DNA of 53,619 bases, filler included, from Circinaria calcarea (GCA_051942165.1; 2 parts of 2 records of this genome joined end to end with filler, not necessarily neighbours in it), one strand, 5' to 3'; positions 6,659 through 36,800 are shown, numbered from the whole stretch's first letter. The notes: a model not told the origin generated them from the letters alone. Program-made: numbers and translations.

Positions 6659-7445
6659 TGCAAACGCAAAGGCTCCTCGGGATATGCAGAGTGCCTAGTT
6701 TCCCATTTGCTATCACTGCAAGTGGAGAACCGCTGTGGCATCCGATCCCAAGCCTCATGCAACTCTCCAGTGCGCCGCAAGTTCTCGAGCTTCAGCCGTA
6801 GTAACAGAGATGATGTTGGAAGCGCCGGAGTAGATGGTGGTAACAACCTAAAAAGAGAAATCGATCGTAAATCAGCTATCTATTGCTCAACAAGGCGTTA
6901 ATGTAGTGAACATGGTCCGGCGCGTTGAAAGGGAAGGCTGTCGTCAATGTTTGGCGAACTGGGCTCTTCCTGATGGATCTATTGTTCTAGACACCTATCG
7001 ACCTGAGACATGTAGCTTTGAAGCGGCCTATTGTCTATATGCAAGATAGGCGGTGGCTCGGAAAGGTGCAGAAAGAAAGGTCATTCAGGTAGCTGGAAGA
7101 TGGCTGAACGAGACAGGCTGCTCTAGACGCAGTCGTCAAGACGTAATTATCAAAGGCGTAGGAAGTATCAACAAGGGCTGAGGGGTATGTCAATGTTTAA
7201 GCTAAAGGGCTTTGCTGAGGTGCGATGGTAAAAATATAGGTAACCTTTCACAGGACGTTCCGGTGATATCAGACCTCTATCCTCGCTATGTAATTCGGTA
7301 CCTCTGAGAGACAGCGTTTTGATTGGTCGGATTTGGTAGATAAATGTACAAATGTTCCGAACGTCTAGATTGCATTGCAAGCGTTAGGAAAAATGGAGCA
7401 GTCTAAGCGGCTGCTATAAGATTTGTGGCCAACTGTTCTACGGAA

Positions 7446-9035
7446 TTATCCACGCTCAGCAATCCTCCTATCCGGCGCCTGGCCCCTGTCACGATCCCAT
7501 GCTCTAGTGCTGGTTAACCCCTTTGCCAACCGTTTTGCTTTCTGGTCCTCTTTGATGTCCTTGGCTTTCTCCCGCGGATCTATAACGACGAGCTCCTCTT
7601 CGTTTTTCCTCTTCCAGGTCAGATCCTTACCCAAGCGATCCTTTTCAAACGTCAAGACATGTGACATCCATCCTTTTCCGTCCTCATCTTCGGGTTCGAC
7701 ATTGTCATTCATGTGCTGGTCCCACGATTGACATGACTGACAGTTTGCGATGAAATGCAGATCACATAGATGGGCTTCTTCGTCGTCCTCGATAGCTCCA
7801 TCTCCGTTAGTATCACCGCTAATCATAGGTCGTTCATCCCTTGGCTCCTGAATCGGAGAGTCTTGCGAAGGAGCTTCTGGTGGCGCCTTATCGAGCTTTT
7901 CCCGAAATGCAGCCAAGATCTCTAAAGCTCGTGTGTCCCCTGATGAGTTACCATTGGCTCCGTGTTTACGCTTCCGGCCGCGTATTGATGTTTCCGGCAT
8001 CATTTGCTCAAGAGCTGATTTCTTACGTCGGGATTCAGGAGGTGCAGACGGAACACTCCGCTTCATAGAAGCCTTCAACTCGACGATTTGAGCATTGGTA
8101 TGGTCTAGTAGTGAGGATACTTTCTTAACCTCCGTGGGCTCTGGGGAAGTCGAGGGATCCCGAGATGGGTTCTCGTAATTGGGTAAGGGTAATTGCGTTT
8201 CTGGGTGTGAATTTAGCTTTGGTGGCGGAGAAGCTGATTTGGTATATTCTCTTCGTATAGCTTTCCGTAGGTTCTCCTGAGGTGCCATAACCTCCTTGGT
8301 AATATCAATTGTGTCAGTAGACCCAGGTGCCGCAACAATGAGTTTCGTATTGAACTTGACTTTAGTTGTAACGGACGGCACTAAGTCCTCCGCTTCCTCT
8401 CCAAAACTCAAAAGCGTCTTCGGCGCTTTCTTTGGTTTCTTCTTGTCATGCCGCTTCTCCTTGACCAATTTAGCCGCAGATGGTACTTCTCTAGCAACCA
8501 TGCCCTCGAACGGGTTCACCAAGACCTCCGCTCCTGTAATTGTTGTAGGGTACAATGGTCTTTCGCTGCCCTCTGTGCCTACTAAGCCAGATTCTCCCAT
8601 TTTAATCAAGTTATAGATCGTATCTCCAACAACACGGCCAAACATGGTATTCTTCCCGTTAAGCTCCTCCGTTTTTCCCAGAGTCAGAAAGAATTGACTC
8701 CCATTATCGTCTTTCTTTCCACTGTTGGCCATGCCCAGTAAACCTCTCCGATTAAACTTGAGCCGACTGTGAAACTCGTCCGCAAAGAGTCCGCCATCGT
8801 AAATGGCTTCGCCCCCTTCCCCTGTTCCGGTCGGATCACCTCCCTGGATAATAAAGCCAGGAACCAGTCGATGAAAGACTGTGCCGTTGTAGTAGCCATC
8901 GAGACAGAGCTGCAGAAAATTCCGCGATGCAAGAGGAGTCTGCTTTCCGAAAAGCTCAAGGAGAATATCGCCGGAGGTGGTTTGTAGGAAAACTTTGGCA
9001 GTTGGTTGTGGTTCGAGATTGTAGAGAGCGCTCAT
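7446..9035 (-). CDS. CWC27: Spliceosomal cyclophilin-type peptidyl-prolyl isomerase Cwc27, 529 aa, single exon
   Basis: N-terminus 'MSALYNLEPQPTAKV', cyclophilin motif 'FHRLVPGFIIQGGDPTGTG', fungal 'CDLHFIANCQSC' and 'WMSHVLTF...VVIDPREK' C-terminal motifs. Confidence 0.92.
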   Translation of the reverse strand: MSALYNLEPQPTAKVFLQTTSGDILLELFGKQTPLASRNFLQLCLDGYYNGTVFHRLVPGFIIQGGDPTGTGEGGEAIYDGGLFADEFHSRLKFNRRGLLGMANSGKKDDNGSQFFLTLGKTEELNGKNTMFGRVVGDTIYNLIKMGESGLVGTEGSERPLYPTTITGAEVLVNPFEGMVAREVPSAAKLVKEKRHDKKKPKKAPKTLLSFGEEAEDLVPSVTTKVKFNTKLIVAAPGSTDTIDITKEVMAPQENLRKAIRREYTKSASPPPKLNSHPETQLPLPNYENPSRDPSTSPEPTEVKKVSSLLDHTNAQIVELKASMKRSVPSAPPESRRKKSALEQMMPETSIRGRKRKHGANGNSSGDTRALEILAAFREKLDKAPPEAPSQDSPIQEPRDERPMISGDTNGDGAIEDDEEAHLCDLHFIANCQSCQSWDQHMNDNVEPEDEDGKGWMSHVLTFEKDRLGKDLTWKRKNEEELVVIDPREKAKDIKEDQKAKRLAKGLTSTRAWDRDRGQAPDRRIAERG

Positions 9036-9308
9036 TTTGACTTGATGGATTTCGATCTACGCTCTAAGATCGTAGCCAATGGTACTCACTATAAAATCCT
9101 TAGAGAAGCTTTCCTTCCGACAGAACAAGAAGAGCGTCAGCCCTACGAGGTAATCTGGATCCCTGCAGTTCCACCCCGCGGCAGGTCCTCTGACGTTCTC
9201 GGCAGGGAAATTAGGACTGATACGTCTACTCCGTACATGCACTCGATTTGTATATACATCTATCAATCTTACATAAATCTATCGGATTAAAGGCACCTGA
9301 ACTTGCTG

Positions 9309-10078
9309 ATGACGGAACTCTCTTTCGCAAAGTCCTTCCTCGCCATTCTTGACTCCCGGCCCATCAAGCTACAATCCGACTATGCGGCCGATCCCAAGAT
9401 CTTTGAGCCGAAAGGCCCTGTCAGTATCCTTCAATTACCTTCCAAGATGAACGGCCTTCATGAGTGCCTCTGCTGTCAAACTAACATTGGCAGTACACTC
9501 TCCCCCGCATGCCCCACCCCATGCGCCGGCCTTCCAAACCCGCTGCTCCTGGCTCAGCGCCTACTCTTACGGTCTCACTCAGATCGATACGAAATCCCCC
9601 ATTGGACATATCGCTGCGCTCACAGCCCTTAACGACTAGCGTCCTAGATCTCAAGCAGGCGGTGGTAGAGAACATTGGTAACACCAGCACCGAAAAGATC
9701 AAATTACTATACAAGAAGAAACCATGCTCTGATTCAAAGTCGCTGAAAGATGTTGTGGGAGATGAGGTGCCTCCGGGCGGAGAGGCAGAGTTCAGCGTTA
9801 TGATCATGGGAGGGGCGGCGAGCGGAGAGAAGCCGGATCCCAGTGCTGGAACATCGCCGGATGTAGTGATGGGAGGTACGGGATCAGCAGGAGAACAGAC
9901 AAAGGATGATGCGCCTATCGCTCAGGGTATGAGTGGAAAAAGGGTACTGGATACGGAAGAGTTTTGGAATGACCTGCAGGGATTTTTGACGCAGCGGATA
10001 AGGGACCAAGAAGTGGCAGAAGAGGCACTGAAGTTGTTTAGGAGTGCTTGGAGCTTTGCTGACGGTGGCCAAGTATAG
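9309..10078 (+). CDS. GET5: Get5/Mdy2-like ubiquitin-fold protein, ~231 aa; exons 9309-9419, 9494-10078
   Basis: Get4-binding-type N-terminus 'ELSFAKSFLAILDSRPIKLQSDY', ubiquitin-like core 'SVLDLKQAV..EKIKLLYKKKP', C-terminal 'EEFWNDLQGFL..R' dimerisation motif. Intron GTCAGT..CTAAC..CAG at 9420-9493. Confidence 0.8.
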
Positions 10079-10273
10079 TATCAACCTCTCCGGTAGGCTG
10101 GAGATTCTTGAGATAAACATGTATGAAGCCACGATAATCCAGTACATTCGTCGAAATCATAAAACTCTCCTAAGCAGTGGGACAGGTCTATGTAGCGATC
10201 TGGACTCGCCCATAAGGCATTTCAACCTTTCAAAATTCCCTCAGACTATGAATGCATCACTCGTTCCCTTAGC

Positions 10274-11037
10274 TCACCGTCGGCCCTTTATGATATCCTT
10301 GAGTATTGTAGCATATTCGATCTCATCGTCACGATTTGCTTGTACTTCGGCGGCGATACCATTCAGTGCACTTTTTAGCGCTTCCTTGGAGGATGCATAT
10401 GTCATTCGCGGCTGTGCAAGAATCAGCTCCATCTAAGTATTTTTCTCGAGAGGATAATTACTCACAAAAACCAGAGTGCCCTCATCGGGAGACCAGGAGA
10501 TGAATGCGATTTTGTTCCTATTCCAATGTTAGCTTCAAGGCTTTTTTGTGTAAGGTTGAGCTTGGTAAGAATACCGCTTGCCCTCGCTTGCATCGAGCTC
10601 ATACTCGAGATCATAGACCGCATATCTTGGTCCTTTACCTTCTTTTCCTTTGTAGCTCGCTTTGGCATTCATGAGCTTCGATTGGAAAGTTTCCCAGTCG
10701 CCATCTCCTGATGTCTCTTCCACAACGATTTCCTTGTAGTCATCTGAGAGCTTGTAGATGATGTACTTGATTTTGTCTTTGCCTTTGCCGCTGCCGAGTT
10801 TGAGCTCATTGAAGGCAGTTATGCACTCTGGCGCTACGGATATCCTAGATAGGATTCTGTTAGCAAATCTGTCGAAGGCACTTCTTTGTCTGATTTTGGC
10901 CGCGGCGGGATCCCCAGCAAGGTAGTGAGCAAGGGTAGATAGATTGAATGGGTCTGACGTACCCGGATTTACTCTATCACGACGAATACTATGTTAGACA
11001 ATAGATAGCACAGCACGGAAAGAAGAAGACATACCAT
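10274..11037 (-). CDS. COF1: Cofilin/ADF, 157 aa; exons 11037-11035, 10973-10963, 10844-10575, 10517-10466, 10411-10274
   Basis: Spliced product 'MSKSGISVAPECITAFNELKL...KYIIYKLSDDYKEIVVE...PRYAVYDLEY...RNKIAFISWSPD...RMTYASSKEALKSALNG'. Four canonical introns, total 474 nt. Confidence 0.92.
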
Positions 11038-11675
11038 GATGATAGCCTAAAGGAAGTTAAGGGAGAGCGCAAATGTTAAAAGAAGCCCTCTGGGTGGGGT
11101 GCCTTTATTAGCGCAGGGAGAGATAGGCTCCAGCGTAAGGGATGACGAGTACCCTCGAGAGAGGCGAGAGAGTGAAGTTCTTGGAGGCAATCTCAACGAT
11201 TGATGAAGCCTTGTGATTTGATTTTCGGATTTTGATTGATGGGTAGGAAACAACTGATACCGTTGTGGCTTAGTGAGCGAGTGATCCCCGGTACTACGAG
11301 AAGGTGTGAAGTGGTGGGGCTTTGCGGTTTAGCCCCGGCAAAGCATGTCAAGCACGAAGCTACGGGGAAAGAAGCTGATCCCATTGGACTGTATCCCAGA
11401 AGATGGGAGAATGTATCAAAACCTCATGGCTATAAACATATTGACTCCATTACAAAGGCTTTGCTAATTATCTTATTACTACACGATCTAGTACAGGTGT
11501 ATAAATACATGTTGCAACGCTTTTGCCACGCTAGGTAGAAAGACAAACTAAGAAGGGAGGTTGAGTAGAGTTGCTTGGTGGGAATGCAGCATCGCTCACA
11601 AATCCAGAGGTATTGACTCGACGCCATAACGCATAGAGAACATTGGAGTATCGACGACCGAGTGGGGGTAAGATC

Positions 11676-13617
<1,942 letters not shown>

Positions 13618-15480: not shown

Positions 15481-18221
15481 CTAAAGGCCGAATTCAGGGT
15501 TCTCGGCTGAGAGTGTTTCCCAACTGATAGCTCCAAAGTCTCCGCCAAACACGTCGTCGCCATTGGTGAAGAAATCAAGATCAATGTCACTGGGGAAGAT
15601 GACGGTCCCCATTTCATCACTGAGCTGGCTTGCGGAATTTTCGACGGTTTGAACGTTCAGCAGGCGCTGAGGCACGGCGGAGGCAGTCTCGTCGCCGTCT
15701 GTAGGGCCCTCATCGAACAACCCCTCGGATGACTCCAGGCGAGAGTCGGCTTCCCCCGTGTCTTCATTGAACAACTCGGCAAATTCGTCATTCATGGGAC
15801 CTTTCGTCGAGTCATTTTGAATGCTAGCGGTTGCCGGCCCGCCATTAATCAAGCCCGGAGAACCTCCATTAGACGTATTGGACGACGACTCACTCGGGAG
15901 GCTAGAGGGTGCCACGCGAGCGTTACCCATTGGCTCTGTGTCGTTGTTCTTTTGAGCTTTCGGCACATACTGAATTATTTGAAGCTCATCGCTCACGGGA
16001 CTGTGACCTTGGGGAACAGAAGTATCCTGGGAAGGTTGGTACGTGGGTTGTGACTGACTATGACCTTGGGGAACCAAAGTATCCTGGAAAGGTTGGTACA
16101 TGGGTTGTGACTGACTATAGCCGAGGGCCAATGGCTGGCTGACAGGACCGAAGCCCCCATAGCCATATGGATTACTTCCATTGGGATCAAAATTGACAGC
16201 TGGCATAGCGAATGGATCCATTTGATAGGGCTGTTGATACGAGGCTTGACCATACTCGACTGTACCCAACGACGGAAGTGGGTTGAACGGAATAGGGGTG
16301 AAATCATAGTTGTTGAACGTCGAGGAAGAATCAGTGTTTGCATAATCAACTTGGCCATATGCAGACCCTTGCAAACGTGGTCGTTTTGAAGTCGGTGGGG
16401 GCATGTCATATGAGGTACCGGTATACTGACGAAGCGGCTCTGAGGCATAAAACTGTGACAACCCTTGTGGCAGGAAGAACTGATTCGGTACCGCCTGGCT
16501 TGAAATGCTGCTGGATTCTCTAAAAGTGGCTGCGCTGGACATCCCAGTGCTGTAAGGACTGCTGGTCATAGCATATGGTGAAGGAATACCTAATCCTGCT
16601 CCCAATGCACCAGGGACAGACGATGTTCCCTTCAACACTGCCACAGAATGTTCGCTCTTGCCAACCTTGAGTACAGCAATCTTACTTAAAGAGCCGGCGG
16701 GCCCATTCCCAGAGCCCTTCCTCGTCATCTCAATAACTTCGTCCTCATCAGTCAGATCAATTACTCCTGTGGACCTTGACATGGGCGTCTGGCTTCCAGA
16801 TTGGGAAGGGTCCATGAAGCCGGCGCCTGCCGCCACATGCCCGCCCATGGCACTCTTGAAGCCTGATCCATTAGAAACTGATTGATCAACGCTGGAACGG
16901 CTTGAACTTTGCCCTGTAGCATTGAAATTGGATAAAGCCGGGGAAGATTCTGTGAAGCCACGTCTGCGCTTGAGCTGACCTTGCACGCTTGGACCAATGT
17001 CATTTTCGGTTCCCGTGTTTGTGGGAGTGTTCCACATAGCATTACTGGCCATGTTCGATACTACTGCATTGGCTTTGCCCTTGTTGCTTGTACGAGCCGG
17101 TTGCGTACTCGTTTGTGTCTCTCCATACAACCCGTCTGGGTCTGATGTTAAGTCGACCTGGCGGTTGCCAGATGAAGTACCCTTTGCTTTGGAGTTTGTG
17201 GTTCTTTTAGCGGCGGCTCCACTGGCTTTCTTAGACGTTGTTCCAGAGCTGCGAGAATTTGTCGATGGAGCGGTACCGCCACCCCTTTTCATGGGCCCAG
17301 GCACAGGAATACCCGCTTCAGCGGCACGAATACGAAGTTTTGCGACATGTTGCTGTACTGCACCGCCTGTGACCGTGGGCCCTATCATAGAACCGACCTC
17401 GTCCCAAGGGAGCTTGATACCCACCTCGCTGCAGGCCTTTTGCAAGCATAGCAGAATGCGGACGTTGTCTTCTTCTATACGAGATATTAGCAGAGTAATC
17501 GCAACTGATCTGTGTTTATGAAGGTGGGATTGGAAGCTGAAGTCTGCAGAAGTGTCTCGAGCTAGGTGCCCTCGTGGCAAACGAAGACCACTACGGTATC
17601 CATAGGGCAACTTGTACTTTGGGATATAGTATGGTATTTTTGGCCGGTGAACTCCTTTGAGAGGGGATCTAATGAAGAATTCTTGAAGGAAAGGTGAGAG
17701 AAGTATCAAGCACGTACCGGTCCAACGATGCAGTTCACGGGTTTCCGGGCGTATTCTGCGCGCCATGATATCTTCCTGAAGGATGGCCAGGTCGCATTTG
17801 AGGTGGTCGACGCGGAACTCCTCGACTGATTGTGAAATGTCAGCAAAGAATCAATGTCTGCGAGCAAAAGCTTTGCAGTAGCTTCAAGCCCACATTGAAC
17901 TCTTGAAGGTGGTGCTTCCAGGAGTCTGATGGACTTGGTACGGCCTGGGTGAGGTGAAGGAGTTCATGGGTACCAAGTGAATCATTGTTACGGTCGTGGT
18001 GAGCTTGCTTTTTCATAGGGGACCGTTGACAATGGTAATGTCGGCGATCTCGCTAATAAGGCAACTGAAGGAAGGAGTATAGGCTGGTGCGTACGATCAT
18101 TCACTCGAAGGTGAAGCTTCAAGGTTGACGGAAGAGGTAAGGGATAGCATAGTGAATACGACAACGTACTGCTGATATCGGTAGGCAGTATGAACCTCCA
18201 ACGGCTCATATCCATTGCCAT
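15481..18221 (-). CDS. Myb/SANT-like domain protein A, ~717 aa with long disordered tail; exons 18221-18170, 17825-17718, 17474-15481 (alternative start ATG at 17766)
   Basis: Spliced domain 'ELHRWT|EEDNVRILLCLQKACSEVGIKLPWDEVGSMIGPTVTGGAVQQHVAKLR'. Introns GTACGT..CTGAC..CAG (17826-18169) and GTACGT..CTAAT..TAG (17475-17717) preserve frame. The first exon is less certain. Confidence 0.75.
16004..16118. repeat. 57-bp tandem duplication (2 copies) inside gene A coding sequence
   Basis: TGACCTTGGGGAAC...GGGTTGTGACTGACTA begins at 16004 and again at 16061. Encodes SQSQPMYQPFQDTLVPQGH / SQSQPTYQPSQDTSVPQGH. Confidence 0.9.
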
Positions 18222-19110
18222 GTCTTCGTGCTGGTCGGTGGAAGGAGTGCCTTACAGAAGTTTGCAGTGAGTGCTGATATGAATCGAGACCGGAGATTCC
18301 TTCACAGAGTGTTCATCATGGCTGTGGGCGGCTGTGGGAAATTGTGGGATCTACCCTTCGCGAGGGATTTATAGGAGGGGATCAGGTCAAAATTACATGA
18401 GAGTCGCCGTATCATACGATCAGGAAAGCCAGTCATTACGGCTCTCCGTCCTTCGCTTAGCCCAAGGATTACACCAGGGGATTTGCCGGATTCACCATCC
18501 CGGTCTGCTTCCCCTACAGCTCAACGCTTACCTAGCTGTGTATATAGAGAGCTTACCGCCTTGTGCTATGGATGCTATGGCGTCGAGGTGGGTGATGCTG
18601 GAAGTGAACTTCTGGGAAAGGTTGTTGCCTCTGGACCTAACCTACAGCTCGTTTCCCAAGGTCCTTAGACACTCCTAAGGGTTACAGAGCCAAGGCACAG
18701 TGAACTTCCAGACCTCCTCAACCACCGTCATCTACTCTCCTAATAAGCAGCTTCAAGATAGTGCCTCCTGTTGTGTAAGTTATCTCCACTCTTCTCCTAT
18801 AAGAACTCTTGTTTAACACATGCTCATTGCCTGTATAGTGCAGTGTTGGAGAAAGGGGAAATCGGGTTAGTCGAGAACCTCGCACGGGCCATGGATCCAA
18901 AAGGGGCAAGGACACTCCTGTTTACCAGCTGACGGTAGGCTGCAATGTTTCCAATATTTCCATACGATGCGTATCAACGTATCTGTGGCGGACTTTGTGC
19001 GGTTGGTCAAGGACAACCAAGGGACACACGTACTACTTGGGGTCATACAAGCGATCGAGAAAGCTCACAGACTTAGCACGAGACTCAGGCTATCATATTG
19101 ATGCTTTGAT

Positions 19111-19167
19111 TGCATGCTATCAAGAATTGCACACTATCGAGAATTTCATGCTGTCAAGAATTGCATG
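19111..19167. repeat. 17-bp imperfect tandem repeat (~3.3 copies)
   Basis: TGCATGCTATCAAGAAT / TGCACACTATCGAGAAT / TTCATGCTGTCAAGAAT / TGCATG. Confidence 0.8.
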
Positions 19168-19373
19168 ACTAGATGCTCGCACTGAAGACTATCCCAGTGG
19201 ACCCGGCAGCAACCTGATCAAGTCCCATGAGTCGATTCGCCTTGCCGGTGCACGTAGAAGTCCAAATATCCCAGCAGCGACTACAGCCCACGCTCATAAC
19301 GAAGACCCCTTCCTAGCACACACAGGTCGTCACGCGCTGGCCATGCAATGCAGACACTTCCGAGCAGCTTCGC

Positions 19374-20141
19374 TTAGTCGGAAATCAGGATACTTTCGTG
19401 AGTGCCGTTTTCGTAACTGCTGTTCTCGTAAGTATTGTTCTCATGACCGCTGCTGGGCTCGTCCCCAATCCCACTGCCATCAGTCTGAATCATGTCGCCA
19501 GTAAGGGCTGACGGAGTGTTGAGCTGAGCAAAGTCTTCAGAGTGGGTGAAGTTGTTGAAAACGTCATGCTCGTCATGCTCGTCAAGTCTCAAGCTTGTGC
19601 TGCTTTCGCGAGGCCTGTAGTAAGCCCAGGGATACTGAAGATTGGCCATCTCCTCTGTACTGGCCGTTGTCTCATTCTTGATCACCGGACCTGTAACTTC
19701 CTCTTTGACCTTTCCTAAGCCCTCATCGTCGTCTGCAGCCTGATTAGTATCTTCGTCGAACTGATCAAGCTTGCGCTTCTTGCCACCGGTGCAAGCCGAG
19801 CCTTCTTTACGGCGGCGGGATGGTATGGGAGTATCGCGGATTGTCGTCTGTGTCTGATGGATCCCATGTGCCTTCATCATTCTCTCATAACGCTTGGCGC
19901 TGTGCGTAAGCAGTGATCGTCAGTTTGCATCCGTCCGAAAAGCCCCTATGAGAGGTAACAATCTTACGCTGCCCCTTTGCTGACAATGTTGCATTCTCTT
20001 GCAACTTCGCTAAAGTCGACCTACTGATCTCAGCTGGCGACAGGCAAGATGTGAAGTCATTATAGCTACCTTGCCATTGTTGGAGTACCGAATGCATGAG
20101 ATGAGAAATCTGAACTGTCCTTCAGGACCTGCAGGAGGCAT
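19374..20141 (-). CDS. Myb-like DNA-binding domain protein B, 216 aa; exons 20141-20070, 20020-19968, 19899-19374
   Basis: Spliced N-terminus 'MPPAGPEGQFRFLISCIRYSNNGK|VDFSEVARECNIVSKGAA|AKRYERMMKAHGI'. Introns 20021-20069 and 19900-19967; total 651 nt in frame; KKRK basic patch and acidic tail. Confidence 0.85.
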
Positions 20142-20888
20142 GGTGAGATGGGAAAGGGGTTGGTGGTAGACTGAGTGAGATCGTATTGGATGAGTGGGTC
20201 AAACGCGTGAGAGTTGTGATATTGACGAAGCAAGAGGCCAAGATGATCGGAGCTGTCTGATGGTACGGTAAGTAAGGACAAGAAAAGAATGTGAGCGGAA
20301 GTGGGAACGTCTGGATTATAGAGAAGTGCGACCAGTCGAAAGGAACGACTTACAAGCTTGTCAGCTAAGGTCTTGTTAAAGATGCATGGCAAAGGGCCGA
20401 AGTAGCATTTGCAGGTACAGGTAGGGTAGGCGAAGATGGCAACTAGCGTGTTGATTGTGTGGACTACATCAAAGGTCTTTGCGTGCTCGGCTCACAGTGC
20501 GGCAACACACATGCATATATTGTCGAACTTGAAACTCAGAAATATTCCGGGAAACCATTCTTCTTCTTTTTCACGCACCGAGCCATCACAGGAGGCTAAG
20601 TACAACTATGAGGTTATGGAAAGCGTGTTTGAAATATCAAGTCCTCGTTGATAAGCATATGGATACAAAGACGCATCGCAGGCAAGCCTTTCTTAGCAGG
20701 CAAATATCCTTGTTTTCGATATCGATCCCTGGACTAACTGCTAAGTACCATTGCCTTCTCCTTGGTGCTCACATAGCTAAGACACAAAGCTGAGTGTCAT
20801 CTGAAGAGAAATTCTGCAACCAACGGCCCCCTCCGGGTTGAAAGTAAAAGCATTTAACTGGCTTGGGCATTCGATGGCCTGAAAAACG

Positions 20889-21553
20889 CTACGGGTAGAT
20901 CGGACCTTTGTACAATCTGAGTGCCATCTCCTCCTCCTTGGTTAATGACCTGCTTTCATCAGCGAACGGCATCACAATCTCGGCGTCCATCGTTGCGGGC
21001 GTCTTTTTTTCTCGCTTGACCTTAGGACGCGGTTTCCTCTCTCGCTTAACCTTGGGAACTGGTTTCTCGTCCCTGAGAGGAGGTATTAGCGGACGTGGCC
21101 GTCAGACACAGAAGCTTCGCTCACCCTCCATTAAGGCCATCTACAATCGTACTTTCGTCACCGTCAGACAGTTCTCGCTTGATACCAGCAGAAACCGCGG
21201 CGGGGACAGAAGTAGTGGAGGACGAAGCAGTGTCGAGCCCGGACTGCGCCACAAGTTTCTTTTTGATCTGATAGAAACGTGTCGAGGCTGTAGAAGCGTT
21301 CTTGTGGCCCGTCGCCTGGGCCACTGCCTCCCAGTCCGTCTAGCAAGAGCGTTAGCCACAGTCGAAAGGTAGGGACCAGACAGCCGTCCAGCAACCCAAG
21401 ATGTTTAATCCGTCTCGTCAGGTGAAGCAGGATTGGGGTGATGCTAACCTTCAGCTTGTCCTGCTGGTTCAGTAGGACATGGAGCAAGAAAAGAGCATCT
21501 TTGGTGGTGGGTTCTACCAACTTTGATGACGAACTGATGTTTTGTTCGGCCAT
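20889..21553 (-). CDS. Myb-like DNA-binding domain protein C, 167 aa; exons 21553-21449, 21339-21125, 21072-20889
   Basis: 'TTKDALFLLHVLLNQQDKLK|TDWEAVAQATGHKNASTASTRFYQIKKKL'. Introns GTTAGC..CTAAC..TAG and GTGAGC..CTAAT..CAG; total 504 nt; basic tail 'PKVKRERKPRPKVKREKK'. Confidence 0.82.
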
Positions 21554-22540
21554 GTTTGAGGATGAGCGATACTTTGCTTCGCGGATGAGGCGATGTTTGG
21601 TGTCGACGATGAAGTGATGCTGTTGTTCAGCGATAAGGCGATGTATTCAAGGAAGTGGTCATGGGGGTCCAGATGATGTTAGAATCAGAGCGGTTGATGT
21701 GAAGGGATCTGTTGGTATTTGAGGTCAGTGGTATACTCCTGAGGTAAGTGATAAACTCCTAGGAAGTCCATGATATGCTCACTTACTTCGGACTATGTTC
21801 CATACGTGCGCATGATCGATGAGATGGGACGTTGACGTTGGATTGGGTGAAGAATGAGATGGAGGACCCGAGCATGTGACTCTCAGATTGGTACAGAGTC
21901 TTCGGGCATCGATACGCCGAGGACCGATCGCTAGGAGTCAGGCTCTATGACTGACTGAAGGTCGTGGACTTTTCACAAAAGCTGGGGTGCAAATGCCGGG
22001 GATGTTTGGGCGCAGATAACTCGGGCATCTTTAACCGTGCCGTGAGCTACGCAACGGGCCCTGGGAATCCAAGCGACAATTCCAAGCGATATCGGACCTC
22101 GGGACTTATAACTATGTGTATATGCTTCGTTTTTACTGCCTTTACAACAATGATGTGTACGGCTCTGCTCATAGATCCTTTGCTATTCATAGGATGTATA
22201 GAATATCATAATTCTGTCATGCTCTACGCTTAGCGTTACCTCGCTTAACTGGCGTCTTGGCGTATAGTGAAACCCTTTCACGTACACACTTCTTCTTCTG
22301 TGACGATTAGTTCTCGTATACAATGCGTATAGCCATCGTATTGCTCGTGCCTCACAATACTATATACCTTAGCTTTAGATACTTATCAAGTAAAGTACTC
22401 TACGGCTTCACAAATTCATACATTTACTTAACCGTACCCATTTATTCATCTGTCATACATATATTCCAGCATGATAGAGAGGAATTACAAAAAGTACTCC
22501 TTTCATCTCCGCAAATCTTTGCCGCAGCCAAAGCCCTGCA

Positions 22541-23173
22541 TCACTTCTCCCATCTTGGCTCCATTTTCACCATAGGCTCGCGCTTCACCGTTGGCGCTGG
22601 CAATAACCATGAGCCATTCATACAAGCCGAATCCTCCAAATAGGTCACGGAGGATACATCTTCCTTCGCCATATGCAGCGGTATCTCCATCTGATCCGTA
22701 GGCGCCAAAGATGCAAAACCTCCCAGAGAAAGCTCTTCAACCCCAACATGGTCGACGGCCTCCTTCTTCACAAAGCACTCTGACTTTACCGCCGTCGTCA
22801 TTTCTGGCATGTCAATCTGTATCTCCATGGGATCCGGTTTGATATGCTGCTGGAGTTCGGTTTTGGGCTTCTTTTCATCGTCGGTCCGCTTCTCGCTCTT
22901 CGCCTTCTTCTGACGGTAGCTTCCGCTGGCTCTGGGTTTGCGAGGTGTAGGCGGTACGCCTTCCATGTGTTGTTTGAACCGAGAGAATCTCATGCGTGCC
23001 GCATGCCCATTGGTAATGTCTAGATCTCCCGCTACGATGTTCCAATCGATCTGAGAGAATCAACTCAGCAACCATCGCGGAGGTTAGGAGGATAGCTTCC
23101 TTACAGACTTGTGATCCAATTGCTTCAAGATTGTATAGAGAAATCTAGCGGTGGCCCCATCTGTGGGCATCAT
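22541..23173 (-). CDS. Myb-like DNA-binding domain protein D, 192 aa; exons 23173-23105, 23050-22541
   Basis: 'MMPTDGATARFLYTILKQLDHKS|IDWNIVAGDLDITNGHAARMRFSRFKQHMEG'. 54-nt intron GTAAGG..CTGAG..CAG; total 579 nt. Confidence 0.87.
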
Positions 23174-24245
23174 CTTGCTTCTTCGAAGGCTCGCCAGCTT
23201 GACCCCTTGGACGATTAAGCGAAACAAGAGATAGAAGCGAGCTATGGGTGTGAAGGGGGTATCCACTGGGATTGTCTGGCAAGAAAGATTGCACAAGCTA
23301 CAGTATCTTTACTGGTATTGGGGGCGTTCTGTAGATTCTTGCTAGGAGTGAAGCTGGGTGATTGAAGGATAGAAATATACAGCCTCTGAACGAGATGATT
23401 TCACTCTTCTCGGCCTGTTTATTGTGATTACCTATCATCCTGCCAACACGCATAAAGGATACTGGTAGACAGCACAAGGATATCATATGCGCAACTGTGG
23501 TAAGCCTTATCCCCATGAAAGTAAGGGACAGACAGTATTAGGGCATTGCGCTTTTGCGGGCCGACACGGAGCGAGAGGCTCTAAGGCTTGTCGGCTTCAA
23601 CGACATGCCCTCTTGCGTCAAGCCAGCCTCTGTCCATATTGTCAATCGTCAAAGAACTTGGCATATCATATGTTCTTGTGCGCCTCTCGCCTTTCCGCCT
23701 GCCTGCCTGCACCTAAAGCTGCAGGGTGTTTCCGTGGCTTTGTATTGTGCATGGCTAGATATGCTGGTAATCCCGGGGGGCGCAGGTCGTGTTTGCCGGT
23801 TCAGGGATGCTCGACGGCTTCGTGATCCATCTGTCGCTGCGGTGGTTGGATGACTCGCCCAGTACGGGCAAGCAGCAGGGTTGGGAGTACCATGGAGAAT
23901 CTTCATGTTGCCTTGGTATGATATGAGTCAAATCGAAGTTTTGCTGCCCTTGTCTATTATTTCTTTTCGATGTATCACCCGTAGCTTCGGCATACAATCA
24001 TACTCTCATACTCGACGGGATCTCTTCCGGCGTTAGAATCTCTAGGGTTTGCGTGAAGGGGCAGACTCATCGTGGTGCGGTTGTGGTACTGCTGATGCGG
24101 TTTTCATACTGGGCCCCAATAAAATCTATCCTCACCAAGATTTGTTGATCACGCACAATCTCACCATTACCCACCTCTCCTCATCAACCCAACTTCCAAG
24201 TTATCCTTTTCTCACCTCTCGCACCATCACTCAAATACCATCAGC

Positions 24246-24972
24246 ATGTCTAAATGGGATTTGGCTACTGATCGTAAGCTCCTGCTTACCATCATCGAGG
24301 TGACCAGCCCCTCAGCGCTGCCATGGGCCGAGATTACTGCAAAGATGGGTGAAGGATTTACCAAAGAAGCTGTTCGGTATGTAGACCCATGTCATATCTC
24401 CTTTGTCTGAACGCTCCATCACGTCATGCCGCCTTGCCATCTGCATTCTTCTTACTCTTTTAGCACACTCCTTTGCTCTTCATACTCTCCTTTGTATACG
24501 CACCTCATCGGTACCTGTTAGACCCACGTCGTTCTCACACCTGTCCCCAATTCTTACCAGTCCTAGCTCTCAGTTAAAGCCCTTTTCTAAAGCTATCATG
24601 TACTAATAATAAAACTAGCCAGCATTTTGCGAAACTGAAGCGAGGAGGCGAATCCAACCCAACGACCCCTGTTGCTCCCAAGGCCGTCAAGAAAGCCGCA
24701 AAGTCAAAGCAGACCGACGACTCACCTAGCGCCGGGCGTAAGCGCAAGAGGTCTGTTGCTGTCGTCACCCCCGACAACGAAGACGACGACTCGGAGGCGG
24801 AAGTTGGGGTTAAAAAGGCAAAAAAGGAGGAATTTGAAGGTCGTCGTGGCTCAATCATCAAGGTCGAGGAGGTCCTTGACAATGGGACTGTCAACCTTGA
24901 CGAAGATTCGTGAGTAATCACGGCCGCTCATAGCAGACTATGAAACTAACATTGATCAGCCTTTACGATTGA
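24246..24972 (+). CDS. Myb/SANT-like domain protein E, ~144 aa; exons 24246-24376, 24619-24909, 24960-24972
   Basis: 'MSKWDLATDRKLLLTIIEVTSPSALPWAEITAKMGEGFTKEAVR|QHFAKLKR'. Introns GTATGT..CTAAT..TAG (242 nt) and GTGAGT..CTAAC..CAG (50 nt); RKRKR plus acidic tail. Absent from the supplied ORF track. Confidence 0.83.
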
Positions 24973-25864
24973 CTTGGGCATGGGAGCAGTGTCACTGCTG
25001 CCTAGTACTGCTTGATGTCATGGGACGTTCTCGTTCATCTATCCTACATTGCAACTCAACAGGATAGTCGCGTCAATCATACTTGTCTAACTCGATGGTC
25101 TCTGGTTTTACTGTCGAAGCTCAGATGAAAGGGTTCTGATAACTTCTCCGGTCGTTGCTCTTTGACGCACAGCAGAAATTGCAATCAATGCAAAGGTTAC
25201 AACAATCGGTTCCATGGACTTCTAGTATGCGGTAGTGACTTGCCATACGTAAGGGCCATGTCTACTCGTGATAAGGTGCTAGAGCACCCAAATGGAAGTA
25301 GTAGAATATTGTACTCTGCTACAATGAGAAATCTGTAACCAAGCGAGGATTGGGTATCTCGATCAAACCAACGCTCGCGTACCAGGTCATTCCATCCCTC
25401 AAAGGTACTGTCCGACAGCTTTCATTACGTCCATGGCTCTTGGTGCCACCGCAGACTGATCCCGCATTCATCCTCGCCATTTAACACCCGTGTCCAAACT
25501 TCCTTGACTTTACATGGACGATAGTACAAGTTTTCCAGCCCATCCATGCCCTGTTGATCCTGAGTTTCACCCCAGCCTGTTGACCAGGGCAACCTCTACG
25601 CGTTCACGTCTATCTGTCCAACCCGAACCCCAAGCCTACATCCAAGGGCCCCGAAGCCAATCTTAAACTCCAGTGATCTGCCCTTCAGTTTACCTTCGAT
25701 TTTCCATCTTCTTCCAGCTCACACGATCAACGTACTTCACCTTGACCTTCCATCTTGGCCATTACTTTACCGTTCTTTCACCATCAACAACCATCGTCAA
25801 ACTTTACAACTTAAACACTCCACCTCAACTCAATCTCACGCTATACCACTTCAAAATCGTCAAA

Positions 25865-26630
25865 ATGGTCCACTGGAACGATCAAGCCGACGCAAAGGTA
25901 TGTACCCTGTCTCATCTCGTTCAACCTCACTTACCTCCTTAACATCATCACACTCCCTTCCCCTCCCCTCCGCTGTACACATCCCGAAGACTGACCTCCC
26001 ACTTCCTCCCTCCTCCAGCTCTTCGCTTGCGTCCTGAAAACCCATGGCGTGAAACTCGATATGCCGCGCCTTGCCGCCGCAATGACCGAAGCCCTAGGTG
26101 AAGGTAAGTAGATCTCACCTTCCCTTCCCCTCTACCCACCATTCTCCAACCAAAAAAACTAACGCTCCAAACCAGAAGTCACCGCAAAAGCTCTCACCCA
26201 CCGTTTCGCCAAACTCCGTTCCGTCGCCTCCTCCGCCGACTCCAGCACCCCCAAATCCTCTCCCACCAAGCCTTCCACCACCGGCACCAACGGGTCCGCG
26301 AGTGCCAAATCCACGCCCCGCAAGCGTAAAGCGGCCGCGCCCAAGAATGCCTCCGCTTCTGTCGGCGCGCAGTACGACGCAGATGGCGATGAGGATGATG
26401 ACGATGAAGAATATGGGCCGGTGAAGGTGGAGAAGGGGACGGGAAGGAAGCGGGGGACGAGAGGTGGTGCTGCGGCGGCGAAGAAGGTCAAGAGTCAGAG
26501 TCAGGGGTTTGAGCAAGGGTACGGGGAAACGGACGAGGGAGGGGAGGACAAGAAGATGGGGATTAAGGTTGAGGTTGAGGGGGACGGATATGAAGAGGGG
26601 GAAGGGGAGGAGTTTGATGAGGAAGGGTGA
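25865..26630 (+). CDS. Myb/SANT-like domain protein F, 190 aa; exons 25865-25897, 26019-26103, 26176-26630
   Basis: 'MVHWNDQADAK|LFACVLKTHGVKLDMPRLAAAMTEALGE|EVTAKALTHRFAKLRS'. Introns GTATGT..CTGAC..CAG and GTAAGT..CTAAC..CAG; total 573 nt; TPRKRK and DEDDDDEE tail. Confidence 0.83.
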
Positions 26631-26867: not shown

Positions 26868-26967
26868 NNNNNNNNNNNNNNNNNNNNNNNNNNNNNNNNN
26901 NNNNNNNNNNNTTAATTAATTAANNNNNNNNNNNNNNNNNNNNNNNNNNNNNNNNNNNNNNNNNNNN
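26868..26967. other. Assembly gap / artificial contig spacer (N44 + TTAATTAATTAA + N44)
   Basis: Exactly 100 nt with a central 12-mer that gives stop codons in all six frames. Confidence 0.97.
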
Positions 26968-30832: not shown

Positions 30833-33800
30833 TCAAGGTCTGGGCTTTCTGCTTTTTGGAATTATGAAAGGATTCACCTCCTTCTTCTTCCTTAACGGAG
30901 CAGGGTTCGTAACATTAGGAGATGCAAAATCTGGTTTGGTGGGAGGAGGCGCCTAAAATAGGTCAGTGTACACGAGACACGAGGGCTCTGAAAGACTGGC
31001 TAGTACTGAAAACTTACCTTGAGGCCTGACAAGTTATCTTTTGTACCGTCCTTGATGGATACCGCAAGTTGATTCATCTTATCGAACTGGGGATCCCTTC
31101 TTATGTCGAATCGGCTTTCATCCTGTTGAGGATTCTCCGCGCGAGAGGGACGGTATTGTGCGTGAGTTGTAAATGCCCCATTTGCTATGGTCGGTGCAAC
31201 ATCACGGAAGGAGGCATTACCAGAATAAGATGAATAGGGTTCAGGTCGTTTAGGGAGATTGTGACCAACATTAAGGTTTGGACCGACTGCTCCAGATCCG
31301 AGGATTGCTTTATATGCTATTCTAGGACCCTTGGGAACATTCAAAGGGGGTGAGGGCTCACGCTTCCTCTTCTGTACAGCCACTGTACTGTCTTTTGTAC
31401 CTGCCCTAGGAGGATCCGGAGGTGGCGGAGATTTACGTGTAACCTTGATCTTTGGCACAGCTCTATCATGATCCCCAATCTGTCTTTTCCGTTGGATTTC
31501 TGGCATTCTTTGCAGAGCAGCCTTATGCCTTGCTTCTTCACCACGGACCTTTTCTTTGTCTCGCTTCGTAAGGATATCAGTACTCGTGCAGACCTTTGCT
31601 AAGTGTCCAATTCTGCCGCATTCGAGGCAGCGCTCGGCGGTGCAACGATTTGCTGAATGATTGATGTCACCGCAACGTTTGCAGCTTCCATAACTGAGGG
31701 TCTTGGCTATGGTATTATCACAAAACGGTGTTGTATGTTGGAAGCTACCACAAACATCACAATATGCGTTGGTGTTCAATCCGTTGCCCCCAGAAGGGAA
31801 ATAGGCGTGGTCCTTGGAGTCAGCAAAGTGAGTATCGATGGAGGTTTGGTCTTTGGGGCTCGATGCATCTGGCATCTCTATATCTGGGCGTGGCACACTC
31901 ATCTTGCGAGTTCCAGCTACCGCCTTTTGTAAAGCAGATTCACTTATGAGTAAGGGCTTCCGTAGTAGTTCTAGAATGTTACCATCGGTGTATCGGTCTC
32001 GGCTTCTGGCATCCTTGATCAAATTACTCCAGAACTCTCCCTTCATCAGTGACTGCGAATTGCCCAAGACCCACAGGGAGGACTTTGCCCGCGTAATGCC
32101 AACATTCATCCTGCGAATATCCGACAAAAAGCCTATGCCACTGCCGACGGAGGCGCGAACACAAGAAAAAATAATGATCTCGCTTTCGCGCCCTTGGAAC
32201 GCGTCGGTGGTGTTGAATTCTATAGTATTAAATATAGCGTCGCCATACTTTTGCGCAAAGCGAGATCTTAGCTCCCTAAGCTGGCTCTTGTAAGGCGTGA
32301 TGATGCCAACCTTCCGTGCAAAGTCATAGCCCTTACAGTCAGTAATAAGGCGTTCGAAGAGTTGTAGCGCAACCTCGAGTTCCGTGACGTTAATAAGTGA
32401 ATGGCCTCTAGTAGAACTTTGATGAGTGCCTTCGACATTGAAGAATCGATACGGTCCAAGGATTTTACTCTCGTGCCACGGCTGTGCTCGCAAGCTCGCC
32501 ATATCGGGTCCGTCCAGCAGCCGACCATCGTAAAAGGCTTGACTAGGAAAGTAGCTGATCTCCGGGTGCATTCGATACTGGGTATCAAGCAGATGAACGT
32601 CATTAGGTTGGTTGATTTGCATGCGAACGAACAAGCTCTGTTCATATTGAAAACGAGCAGCTTCCCGAGAAAGCACAGTGGGTGGCAACTGTTTTGGATC
32701 ACCAACCATAATGCATTTAGCGCAACCGTATTTGAGAGGAATCAAAGCACTGAGCTCAATTGACTGCGCTGCTTCATCGATGATCACGGTCTCGAATTCG
32801 ATATTAAGATTCTGGAACATCTCGTGGCCGCTACCGCTTAGGGTCGCGCAGATGACATGTGAGCTATCGAGTATCTCCTGTTGAGTTTTGCGTCGACTTA
32901 TGTCTGCGTCTCTGGCGGCGGTGTGCCCACTATCACGAGCAAGATCGATTCTATTACTGAGTTCCTGCTTCTTTCTCTTGAGAATCTCGATGTCCCGATT
33001 CATGTCTGACGGGACAGAACCGCCTTTTGACTTAATCTCCTCCAATCTTGCGAAAATTGCATGAAGTTCATCCGAGGTTGCTTTATGGTCCGAAAAGACT
33101 TTTGATGTATCATCGCCTACACTTGTTTTCTTCTCGCCAGCCATGTTCAGCCTCGCGTTTACCAATTCTTCAAGTGTCACATCCAAGACGTTGGCATTGA
33201 TTGCGTCGCTTCGCCCTAGCCTGACTACCATCAATTTATGGAACACCCCATCAGTTGTCTTGACGCCCTGCTTGAGCCTCATTACTAACTCATCCACGGC
33301 CGCGTTACTCGGCGCGCAGACTAGCAGCTTCTTGGAGATCGAAGTTGGCGGTTTAGGAAGGCCAGTGCCATTCGCCGGCTGCGGACGGGAGACGGTCACG
33401 CCTTTATCACGCAGAGTACTGGTCAGAAGCGCCCCAATGATAGCAATTATAGTCTTCGTCTTCCCTGAGCCTGGAGGACTGTCTCTCTATTAGTAGTCGG
33501 ACACCCCGCCATTGCTGTGAAAAGCTACATACCCTTGAATCAATGTAAATGCGTCATTGTCGATTGCAGATCGTACAGCCTTTGCCTGAGCAGCGTTGAC
33601 CTTGTAATTGCTAACAATTGGCTCTATTTGCTTCTCTGTGTAATCCAATAACGGGGAGGCTTTGGCTCTCACGATCTCATCACAAAGGTCGTAGTACTTG
33701 AGGCCCAGCAAGGCACCGCATTCTCGCTCCAGTGGAGTGATTGACGAGACTTTCACGCCATGAAGCGTCACATTCGGTACCATGGCACTAACCAAGCCGT

Positions 33801-36800
33801 TGCCTAGATTGACCCGATAAGTTATCTCCATAACAGCTTTCTTTCGTGTGATCTTGCAGACTCGAGCCAAACAATGAGGTTGTCTCGCATCTGTAACCGG
33901 AGACTCGGCTTTAGACATCAGGATGATGTCTGCTTCGCTGATACCTGTCTCCTTACCATCCGCCATCGTCATCGTGGTACCCACCTCAATAAAAGAATCT
34001 ACTGTCAAACGATTCACAACTTTGATCTCAAAAGCTTTGTAGTTGCTGTCCTCCTTCGATTTGAGAAAACCCTGCCAGGCTTCCAAGATGAGAAGGGGCT
34101 CGAAGGTGTTTTGATACTCTACAGGAGTCCGAAAGGTACTCGTCACCAGGCTGTAGTTGTCCCTATCCGAGTTGGGAGGGAAGTCGCCATTGTGGAAAAA
34201 GTCCCACCCGAGAATGATTCTATGCAGAGTAGAAAGATCCGGAGCTAGACGAGCGCGCATGTCTTTTGCCGAGCGAACTTGCCTCGTCTTCTTGATCGGT
34301 CCTTGTGTCTTCATTTGTTTGAGCTTGCTGGCATTATATTCTTTCACGGCCGCGGATACCTTGACGTCTTTACTAGCCCCGCCAAAGAGCTCCTGATCAA
34401 GCTCGTTATCCGAGTCGGTATCTGATCCGGAGGAAACCATCATCCCTGAACCTTTCGGCGCATGATCTTTACCTTTGATACCAAGCTCACCCAGTACAGA
34501 ACCCTCTCCGGATGTTTGTTCCGCCACGCCTCGAGCGGGGAGATTACCCTTGACTCTTGCTAAGGCCTCTGCATCCCGCTTTATCTTGGCTTGCTTTTCT
34601 TTATCACGCTTCGCCTTGAATAATGATTGAGCGGCATGCTTCTGGATTTGGCTCTGAGACTCTTTGGCTGTCTTGCGGAGTGGATTTCGATTTGCCAGCG
34701 TGGATTGCGAAGCCTTGGAGCCTATCGCTGTGGTCCTAGAGGACTGTCCAAGTTGGTGTTGCTTCAGTAGCTCGACGGAGCGGCTGACAGATAATATATC
34801 CTCATCTAGTAAATCACTATCACCAAACTCATCGTCGTCAGGAACGTTAATAACATCACTTGGCTTTCTCGCCTTCGAACTCCAAGCTTCCAGATCGATA
34901 ATACCAGGTCTGAATTTCTTTCCAGTATCCTTCTGACCGTGACCGGTACGCGCGCGAGGAGTTGCGTGAACGGATGACTGAGACCGGGAAGTATCTGAAT
35001 GATCTGGGTCAGTATCGGTAGTTATGATAGGTCGGCCTAGATTAGCCTCGAGTGCCCTTGCCAGCTCGGCTTTCTCCTGCAAAGTCAAGATCGTCCTTGT
35101 TTTAGTGGAAGCAACCTGTTCGAGGTAATCGCTCGAGACCTTTGAGGGGCCCAATTTCCATTCGCTCAGTCGATTCAGCACCTTCGTGATAAGCTTCACT
35201 GAAGTTGATGCTAGATACTCGTCTCGAAGTCTCAGCCATTTGACCATCGATTCCATGGTTTGAGCAGGATGAGTAAGTAGAGCTTTTCCAGCCTCATCAT
35301 CTTGGACATACGGTAGGCCATCTTTATCCTTGACAAGGACTGCTGAGTTGATGGCACTGGCGAGTATGCTATACTGGTCGAAGAAGTGCTCGGAGAACTG
35401 CATAGTATCTCTGCAAAAGTCCTTCATGCCAGCAGAATCTCCTACGCGACGATGCCATTCTTCGGTCATCTCATAGATAACCCGGAGCGCCTCCCATTGG
35501 TGCTCCCAGAAGTTTTCAATGGCCTTAACTTCCGAGAGGCCCGAAAGCTGACGGATTCTGAGCAGGCCCTCTTGTGAATCGCAAAGTATGTCCAGTACAT
35601 CGGTACACGTTTTGAGCATCCGAGGGCAAGAGGCGAAGGTCCTTTTCCGAGCAATTCGGCGGACGGACCACGAAAAGCTATTGAGTGTATTCTCAAAGAA
35701 CGGCAACAATAGATGCCTAATAGCTTCTTTCCGGGCGAACTGCCCGCTAATACTCTTGGTGAGGTTTACCCCAGCCTCGTAGGTGCTAGGATCTGCTGCA
35801 AACAAGGACGCGACGAGCGCAATTGCTGTTTCCGGTGAATTGAAGAGCTTATCGAGGTCCTCAGGCCTAAAGTCGTTGATCCGCTCAAGCATCTGGCACA
35901 CCAAGTGCGTAAGGTGTCCATAGATGACGTTGAATTCGCTCTTCTCTTTCAAATGATCGATGTTGCCCTTGGTCACGAACTTCTCGAGCCCTGCTAATTC
36001 AACAATGCCAGCTAGCGCCGCTTTAGCCAGCATGACATTCCCGCGATCCAGATGACGAACAACGGCATCCCACATTGCTGGGGTGTAAGAGCTGAACCCA
36101 TGGGGTAAAGTCTTGTGACGCTGGAGAGCTTCCTGGTCGGTTCTCAAGGACTTGCATTCCAAGGCCAGTGCGGATTTAATCACCCTAAGTCCAGGTTCTG
36201 TGAGTGCTATGTATTTTTCGCTTTGGGGCGAAAGAGAAGAGATGGATAATATCTCTTTGATGTAACTGCTCGTTATCTCTAACGTATCCGCAGCAACGAC
36301 TCGTCCCACAGCGTCAAAGACCTTGTCTTCTCGGTTGCAGTTTGTCAGGGTCCATGTTAGTACAGCAAGACCAACGTGGTAGCATTCGATCTGTGCATTG
36401 ATTGGAAATCTTTCCGCTTGCAATCTCTCCATCAGCTGAAAGGTGAGGGCTCGACATGCCGCTGGCTGGTGTGAAGTTTGCAGAGACGACATGAACGGTT
36501 GGATCCAAGAAAGCATGTCTTTCAAAGCCGAAAATTCGTAGTTGTCCCCTTTCTTGGCATCCATCATAAAGCGGTCATAGCGTGGGTTGTTGAAGACTTG
36601 CTCTATGAAAGTGGTAGGTGATATTGCACCCATAGCATCCCAAAAGTCTCTCGGGGCCTTACTTAGCAGCTTCTGGATTGTTTGCAGCAGAAATCGTAAT
36701 CCAGCAGTGTCGAACTGCAAATGCTCGAGGGCGAGCCTGAAGACGTCGAATTCCATTGCACGCAGCGAATGCGTGATAAGGTTACTGTCAAGCTTCTCCA

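Follow-up and report, generated by a model that had tools for sequence, protein, structure and literature searches.

In the parts of the Aspergillus nidulans MYB catalogue considered here, 21 MYB-like genes carrying IPR001005 are listed, including MylA, FlbD, CicD and AdaB, and the fungal MYB-like proteins are described as lacking a comprehensive study, with the fungal 1R-MYB proteins largely unstudied (PMC11199622); a second source mentions 'myb-like' once in the part considered (PMC8396895). The closest Pfam entry, PF22980 (Myb_DNA-bind_8; in UniRef 'Myb-like DNA-binding domain-containing protein'), describes a domain, not an array, and is found at the N-terminus of small, mostly ascomycete proteins. 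Conserved non-metabolic gene clusters are rare in filamentous fungi, in which gene order usually decays fast. Here we describe such a cluster in a metagenome-assembled genome of Circinaria calcarea (GCA_051942165.1). The stretch of DNA that we analysed, called the window throughout, is 53,619 nucleotides long, filler included, and positions 15481-26630 hold six consecutive intron-split genes, A to F (locus tags Q9187_000849 to about 000854), with A, B, C and D on the minus strand and E and F on the plus strand (Table 1). We were able to demonstrate the six genes, a domain of Myb/SANT type that they all share, their division into two sister groups, the great age of the duplications and the conserved layout of the locus. 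On this basis, the locus is best read as an ancient, ordered array of small nuclear-type Myb/SANT-like paralogues that has been kept in many Pezizomycotina, whose products would bind DNA or chromatin, and we put the probability of this reading at roughly 60%.

The gene models were built by hand from canonical GT..AG introns and branch-point-like CTRAY sites, with comparative evidence for the splice junctions, and they give six open coding sequences (A, 680 amino acids; B, 216; C, 167; D, 192; E, 141-144; F, 190). Three of them can be set beside deposited proteins. The D model is letter-for-letter the NCBI protein Q9187_000852 (P0001; 100% identity), the three-exon E model equals Q9187_000853 (P0121) exactly, and the A model is identical to Q9187_000849 (P0226) save that it is 37 residues shorter at the N-terminus, the 243-nt intron being the same in both and the NCBI model having an extra upstream exon at 18171-18221. 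A, D and E at least are already annotated as hypothetical proteins. Between A and D, the tags of these three genes (849, 852 and 853) allow for two annotated genes and no more, which fits B and C with no unrelated gene intervening. Furthermore, hidden Markov models (HMMs) built for each clade from other loci only match all six genes and nothing else in the window, and for B, C, D and F these matches fall at the predicted splice junctions. The scores were 54.6-60.2 bits for A, 77.7 bits for B (at intron 20021-20069), 64.0 bits for C (at intron 21340-21448) and 50.5 bits for F. These matches, together with those of the E-type HMM described below, are far beyond chance, and a chance pattern was rejected.

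Several details of the models deserve mention. In A, the W-type Myb/SANT-like N-terminal domain lies at about 17332-17474, with an additional 'RWT' in the exon bounded by 17718, across the intron at 17475-17717. A phase-0 intron just 5' of the xDW motif is common to B, C and D, and B, the domain of which hardly differs between orthologues, retains the same two intron positions in loci L021, L028, L037 and L038. Support for the short last exon of E comes from the C-terminal motif kept across the E-type family, which confirms it. In F, the donor of the second intron is ambiguous (26098 or 26104). The peptide strings quoted in the original prediction, which was made from the DNA sequence alone, were found at the places it gave, except one B string that reads across an intron; its claim of six consecutive genes with a shared N-terminal domain is borne out by the open models, the agreement of A, D and E with NCBI proteins and the HMM matches to all six. 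The first contig occupies window positions 1-26867, which agrees with the 26,867 nt of the NCBI contig that carries P0001, and ends 237 nt past F, being followed by runs of N at 26868-26911 and 26924-26967 that are 12 bases apart. As the window joins separate contigs and the break lies just past F, the array may continue beyond 26867.

All six proteins begin with a three-helix-type domain of about 50 residues, followed by a disordered tail. The window genes were scanned against Pfam as exon pieces, the gathering cut-off of PF22980 being 27 bits. Exon 2 of D alone scored 39.3 bits (E 3.8e-10), above the cut-off, and the full protein P0001 carries a precomputed PF22980.3 assignment. Exon 2 of C alone, which covers positions 21-47 of the 50 in the family model, scored 26.5 bits (E 4.1e-6; 2e-7 with our own D-type HMM), and exon 3 of B alone, which covers the last 12 positions, matched weakly (11.7 bits, E 0.16). 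A B orthologue whose first intron is an in-frame read-through, and whose domain is near-identical to that of B (L009:5527-5694), scored 45.8 bits. Full-length E (P0121) matched no Pfam family at E <= 1; the A exon with nearly the whole domain matched none, as did the A-type orthologues, and the exon pieces of F gave no Pfam match.

The relationship of E to the others emerged at the level of profiles. A search with E against 1.84 billion proteins (E <= 1e-3) returned 104 representatives, mostly of 120-170 amino acids. Among 55 E-type proteins (P0121 and 54 matches), all Pfam matches were sub-threshold and of Myb type (PF00249, PF22980, PF13837, PF13921 and MADF), save that a single protein, which is not P0121, reached the PF00249 cut-off of 24.4 bits with a score of 24.5. 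An alignment of 43 of these proteins, E and 42 from other species (A2), gave the consensus W..LLL..I...W..VA..MG.GFT.EACRQHFQKI, in which W4 and W27 are conserved and the third aromatic position is F or Y; B/C/D-type proteins are without the first W of the canonical Myb repeat. The HMM made from this alignment covers all six spliced domains over their full length (E-values at Z=1: F, 4e-12; A, 5e-12; C, 3e-7; D, 3e-7; B, 3e-4). Similarly, the E-type profile aligned with the profile of D orthologues (A1) in hhalign at 92% (E 6e-7) over 52 columns, which is the whole domain, and pairwise phmmer searches linked A-E, E-F, A-F, D-E, D-B and D-C. As their domains are interrupted by introns, B, C and F escaped narrow D- and E-type HMMs run on plain six-frame open reading frames (ORFs); such members were recovered by virtual splicing with clade HMMs. 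Against PDB sequences, the E-type profile matched the Ada2 SANT domains 2elk_A (E 0.002) and 1x41_A (E 0.0096), and the D profile gave no relevant match; the ESM Atlas returned only 'Myb-like' ascomycete clusters. On these comparisons D is classified as a member of PF22980, B and C as probable members, and A, E and F as a W-type sister group that falls outside the Pfam cut-offs, is closer to SANT and is tied to PF22980 at profile level only.

Structure prediction with AlphaFold2 (AF2) covered D and E. The model of E has helices at residues 6-19, 27-34 and 40-53, with a predicted local distance difference test score (pLDDT) of 89-96, and that of D has helices at 5-19, 26-32 and 38-52 (pLDDT 78-88); both continue into disordered tails. 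Among the top VIA rows, the structural matches of the E model were nearly all Myb/SANT domains, with Z-scores of 6.0-7.9 over 44-66 residues, including SNAPc4 (Z 7.9), Reb1 (7.4), ARR1, RADIALIS, c-Myb and DMAP1. The top Foldseek match of E was the Myb domain of RADIALIS (probability 0.99, E 0.11, TM-target 0.63), and in Foldseek searches of the PDB neither model had a match at E <= 0.001. The Myb/SANT-like fold that had been proposed is upheld by the PF22980 scores, the hhalign match, the three predicted helices of D and E and the structural matches of E. In both models, a second rise in pLDDT falls on the conserved C-terminal motifs (62-71 at residues 171-192 of D and 71-81 at residues 121-140 of E), where no secondary structure is predicted; judging from the models, the motif of D or E may dock on its own domain or on a partner.

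The duplications that gave rise to the six genes appear to be old. In blastn comparisons among them no DNA similarity was found, all cross matches having E > 0.03. The domain tree, built from 62 rows, has two main groups, {E,F,A} and {D,B,C}, both supported at 99/97, and within these groups the clades are supported at 99/96 (A), 97/97 (B), 94/88 (D), 95/71 (F, 7 rows) and 91/81 (C, not starred). Each gene of the window groups with its positional counterparts from other fungi. A recent amplification is ruled out by this grouping and by the absent DNA similarity, and the tree supports A-F as an ancient retained paralogue array, in keeping with what had been suggested from the window sequence; the order and orientation that recur elsewhere agree with this.

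To follow the array beyond Circinaria, metagenome contigs were scanned with the D alignment, giving 80 loci with flanks of up to 10 kb, which form 47 distinct groups. By tblastn with the six proteins, the usual layout is that of the window: D, C, B and A share a strand, and E and/or F lie upstream of D on the other. Clade HMMs with virtual splicing identified further family members in 19 of 23 representative D loci of at least 8 kb. A downstream B-type gene on the same strand was present in 11 of the 19 loci with at least 5 kb downstream, and an A-type gene in 5 of the 19; an opposite-strand E-type ORF lay no more than 4 kb upstream of D in 15 of the 24 groups with at least 3 kb upstream. In locus L021, whose D is 69% identical over 262 amino acids to that of Thermoascus crustaceus, E, D and B stand in order and the B introns are kept. 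Among named fungi, D orthologues are found in Lecanoromycetes, Eurotiomycetes, Geoglossum, Xylona and Sarea, and E-type proteins in genera including Morchella, Choiromyces, Zasmidium, Cryomyces, Chlorociboria, Letharia and Chaenotheca. Given this spread, and the class-level placement that we presume for these genera, the domain family is probably as old as Pezizomycotina. Conservation is uneven among the members: D is the most conserved, with a domain near-invariant among its orthologues, and C is the least conserved of the B/C/D group. A search with the A protein returned five close relatives only, and one with exon 1 of E returned only E itself.

Some lineages carry members that the window does not have. 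An extra F-like gene lies between B and A in three loci (L010:15267-15452, L012:8579-8764 and L034:19180-19371); two of these extras pass the PF22980 cut-off (L012, 36.6 bits; L034, 31.3 bits), the third falls below it (L010, 18.8 bits), and the extras form a subclade of their own (99/96) beside the true F subclade. L051 and L063 have three further E-type domain ORFs in tandem, which share the strand of the E counterpart and lie 5-7 kb upstream of D; in that lineage the array has been enlarged on its E side.

The tails of the six proteins suggest how the products might be regulated. The D tail carries repeated VKxEP-type motifs, of which two are conserved among orthologues, the rest of the tail being variable; the orthologue alignment shows no change at K118 and K185, and conservation of at least 90% at E120 and E187. 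In some species, such as Trapelia (P0018), D tails have runs of VKPEP, IKPEP and VKAEP repeats, which to our mind resemble proline-flanked SUMO sites ('synergy control' motifs). The 43 E-type proteins share an FKxE motif and a C-terminal vDLexDD-LYD consensus, and E itself combines a basic KRK patch and an acidic patch with an IKVE motif and the family-wide C-terminal ..NLDEDSLYD. A psi-K-x-E motif occurs in each of B to F, [VI]DLT-acidic motifs occur twice in A, and KRK-type patches are present in A, B, C, E and F. The tail of F is K/R-rich and very acidic, and that of A is a disordered stretch of about 600 amino acids, rich in Q, P, S and Y, with an acidic-hydrophobic C-terminus. We take psi-K-x-E(P) to be the SUMO-acceptor consensus, and [VI]DL(T)-acidic to resemble the SUMO-interaction motif (SIM); as a lead, these motifs hint at a SUMO link.

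Taken together, these features suggest the following model. The array radiates from the head-to-head E and D genes, with E and F running one way and D, C, B and A the other, and the fact that E and D have stayed head-to-head suggests that they are regulated together. The proteins would be nuclear, with K/R patches that look like nuclear localization signals, and the three-helix domain would be the part that contacts DNA or chromatin. Regulatory short motifs, SUMO-acceptor-like and SIM-like, would lie in the tails, and we favour the view that the proteins are regulators under SUMO control. A, which has the composition and the acidic-hydrophobic end that we associate with activation domains, would by its look be an activator-type member. 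The D-E spacer may contribute promoter signals: of 19 D-E spacers, 10 contain the 8-mer GTGACTCA, compared with at most 8 after shuffling. The count is inflated by related loci, which are not independent, and the 8-mer is a weak lead as a shared promoter motif. The TGACTCA-type site at 23924 is presumably Gcn4/AP-1-like.

Several observations weigh against this model of an ancient, ordered array of nuclear DNA- or chromatin-binding proteins. SANT-like domains often bind proteins or histone tails and not DNA, and the structural matches of D are weak and mixed with generic helix-turn-helix folds (best Z 5.2). The clade labels of the tree were the best tblastn query and hence are partly circular. 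D has no family neighbour within 10 kb in 4 of the 23 long loci (L014, L016, L036 and L042, of which L014 and L016 are Onygenales-like), so that the array is not universal; one lineage (L048, L067 and L073) has its C-type gene upstream on the other strand, and a few low-scoring matches break the orientation rule. In Sarea resinae, the only named genome with both a D orthologue (M1819_006502) and an E-type match (M1819_000463), the two are far apart, although the E-type match may be a paralogue. Finally, a tail rich in K and E readily gives rise to psi-K-x-E, and for the SIM-like motif of A the comparison covered close relatives only.

The main rival takes up the first of these points. On this account, the domains are SANT-type modules for interaction with proteins or histones, and the six genes encode small adaptors or subunits of chromatin-modifying complexes, possibly with heterodimers of E-D type; this would explain kept, stoichiometric head-to-head expression, much as divergent histone gene pairs encode dimer partners. 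The only significant solved relatives of the E-type profile are the Ada2 SANT domains, several of the top structural matches of E are SANT domains of complexes (Rsc8/SWI3, DMAP1, MTA1 and CoREST), and the head-to-head E and D pair recurs in the 15 of 24 locus groups counted above. However, DNA-binding Myb domains (SNAPc4, Reb1, ARR1, TRF1 and c-Myb) score equally well against the E model, and helix 3 of D, B and E is rich in R and K. We regard the adaptor explanation as possible, though unlikely.

The model of an ancient array of DNA- or chromatin-binding regulators could also be extended. The locus would then be a Pezizomycotina-wide, selectively kept regulatory locus, its genes co-expressed from shared control regions and its products assembled on chromatin through SUMO-SIM contacts, for example the E-D pair with the activator-like A, as an unrecognised chromatin or transcription module. 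In this full form the proposal is quite unlikely to be right.

The array might instead be a slowly decaying relic of old tandem duplications, with independent members and a neighbourhood kept by chance or a low rate of rearrangement and not by selection. Membership does vary by lineage, as seen in the extra F- or C-like copies of L010, L012 and L034 and in the tandem E-type genes of L051 and L063, and the solitary D genes and displaced C genes mentioned above would also be expected of a relic. However, gene order in Pezizomycotina usually scrambles fast between classes, lichen-type contigs and a Thermoascus-like contig have E, D, B and A in the same order and orientation, and none of the other window neighbours (HSP60, Get5, the cyclophilin-type peptidyl-prolyl isomerase (PPIase) and the heat-shock factor (HSF)) was found near D in any locus. 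A relic is very unlikely. Extremely improbable is the suggestion that wrong splicing or gene decay affects some of the models, with C or F the likeliest cases, and that the functional members are fewer: C and F are the least conserved, the F donor is ambiguous and C reaches only 26.5 bits in Pfam on half a domain, but all six coding sequences are open with canonical splice sites, and the C and F HMMs from other species match at 64.0 and 50.5 bits at the predicted junctions, both genes lying in clades with counterparts. An origin from a transposon (Harbinger Myb-like) was also considered; no transposase or repeats were seen nearby, in an analysis that included no search aimed at them.

The surroundings of the array in the window are of a different kind (Table 1). 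A run of proteostasis genes lies beside it at 4307-13205, identified by Pfam, with the heat-shock factor gene about 5.5 kb from HSP60. The remaining genes that Pfam recognises in the window lie at 28-1562, 31003-37458, 38820-43072 and 49103-49831 and are all ordinary, encoding, in that order, an R3H and RRM protein, a SEN1 helicase (N-terminal, barrel and AAA_11/12 domains), a P4-type phospholipid flippase and a NIPA magnesium transporter. The original prediction had attached weight to the neighbourhood of HSP60. In tblastn searches (E <= 1e-10), HSP60, Get5, the PPIase, the HSF and the ORF after the gap had no match in any of the 80 D loci, and the HSP60 link accordingly did not hold up within 10 kb of D. 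For HSP60 itself this says little, as the gene is some 10 kb away from D and so only just within the flanks searched.

Table 1. Genes of the array, the spacer from which they radiate, and the adjacent proteostasis genes (window positions).
Feature	Position	Strand	Basis
Gene A (Q9187_000849)	15481..17766	-	spliced model, E-type HMM, A-clade HMM
Gene B, PF22980-type	19374..20141; exons 20070-20141, 19968-20020, 19374-19899	-	model and B-clade HMM
Gene C, PF22980-type	20889..21553; exons 21449-21553, 21125-21339, 20889-21072	-	model and C-clade HMM
Gene D (Q9187_000852)	22541..23173; exons 23105-23173, 22541-23050	-	P0001, PF22980
D-E spacer, 1.07 kb, candidate bidirectional promoter	23174..24245	.	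head-to-head D/E; one TGA[CG]TCA site at 23924
Gene E (Q9187_000853), W-type SANT/Myb-like	24246..24972; exons 24246-24376, 24619-24909, 24960-24972	+	equals P0121
Gene F, W-type	25865..26630; exons 25865-25897, 26019-26103 (or -26097), 26176-26630	+	E-type and F-clade HMM
HSF-type heat-shock factor	4307-6151	-	Pfam
Cyclophilin-type PPIase	7449-9056	-	Pfam
Get5	9485-10075	+	Pfam
HSP60/Cpn60	11679-13205	-	Pfam

The significance of the locus lies in its persistence. From lichen-forming fungi to a Thermoascus-like mould, five to eight paralogous Myb-like genes have stayed together as an array with the same order, strand and even intron positions, which points to constraint on the locus itself, for example through shared regulation or balanced dosage. 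D and B, with their near-invariant domains, are among its most conserved parts, yet the members have no known role, and the family largely escapes the usual SANT/Myb catalogues. The array is therefore an accessible entry into an unstudied set of fungal nuclear-type proteins: the conserved lysine motifs are a direct handle for tests of SUMO attachment, and the E and D pair lends itself to a simple genetic experiment.

How does the array compare with what has been described? A literature search by family name, locus tags, peptide motifs and broader words, with supplements outside its reach, found neither the family nor the array described, nor a functional study of any PF22980 member. The domain family is known, and the conserved array and the A/E/F sister group appear to be undescribed. 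The cluster had been called hidden, a description that stands except that A, D and E were already annotated and the D-type domain is in Pfam. The A. nidulans catalogue concerns the same broad superfamily, was drawn up by IPR001005, and in the part considered here makes no mention of clustering (PMC11199622). With respect to PF22980, D passes the cut-off, C nearly does so on half a domain and the B orthologue passes, whereas A, E and F stay below it. Canonical Myb repeats (PF00249) have a similar three-helix fold; E is without a Pfam match, the one E-type protein in 55 noted above being at the cut-off. The plant 1R MYB protein RADIALIS (2cjj), the best Foldseek match of E, is likewise short with a single Myb-like domain, but with an E-value of 0.11 and 15-22% identity common descent beyond the fold is not evidenced, and we know of no conserved array of plant RAD genes. 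The SANT domains of Ada2/TADA2 (2elk, 1x41) align with the E-type profile over helices 1-3, including the T-x-E-(E/A)-C-R-x-H-(Y/F) pattern of helix 3. However, Ada2 is a large multi-domain subunit of SAGA, whereas the proteins of the window type are 120-220 amino acids long and consist of one domain and a disordered tail.

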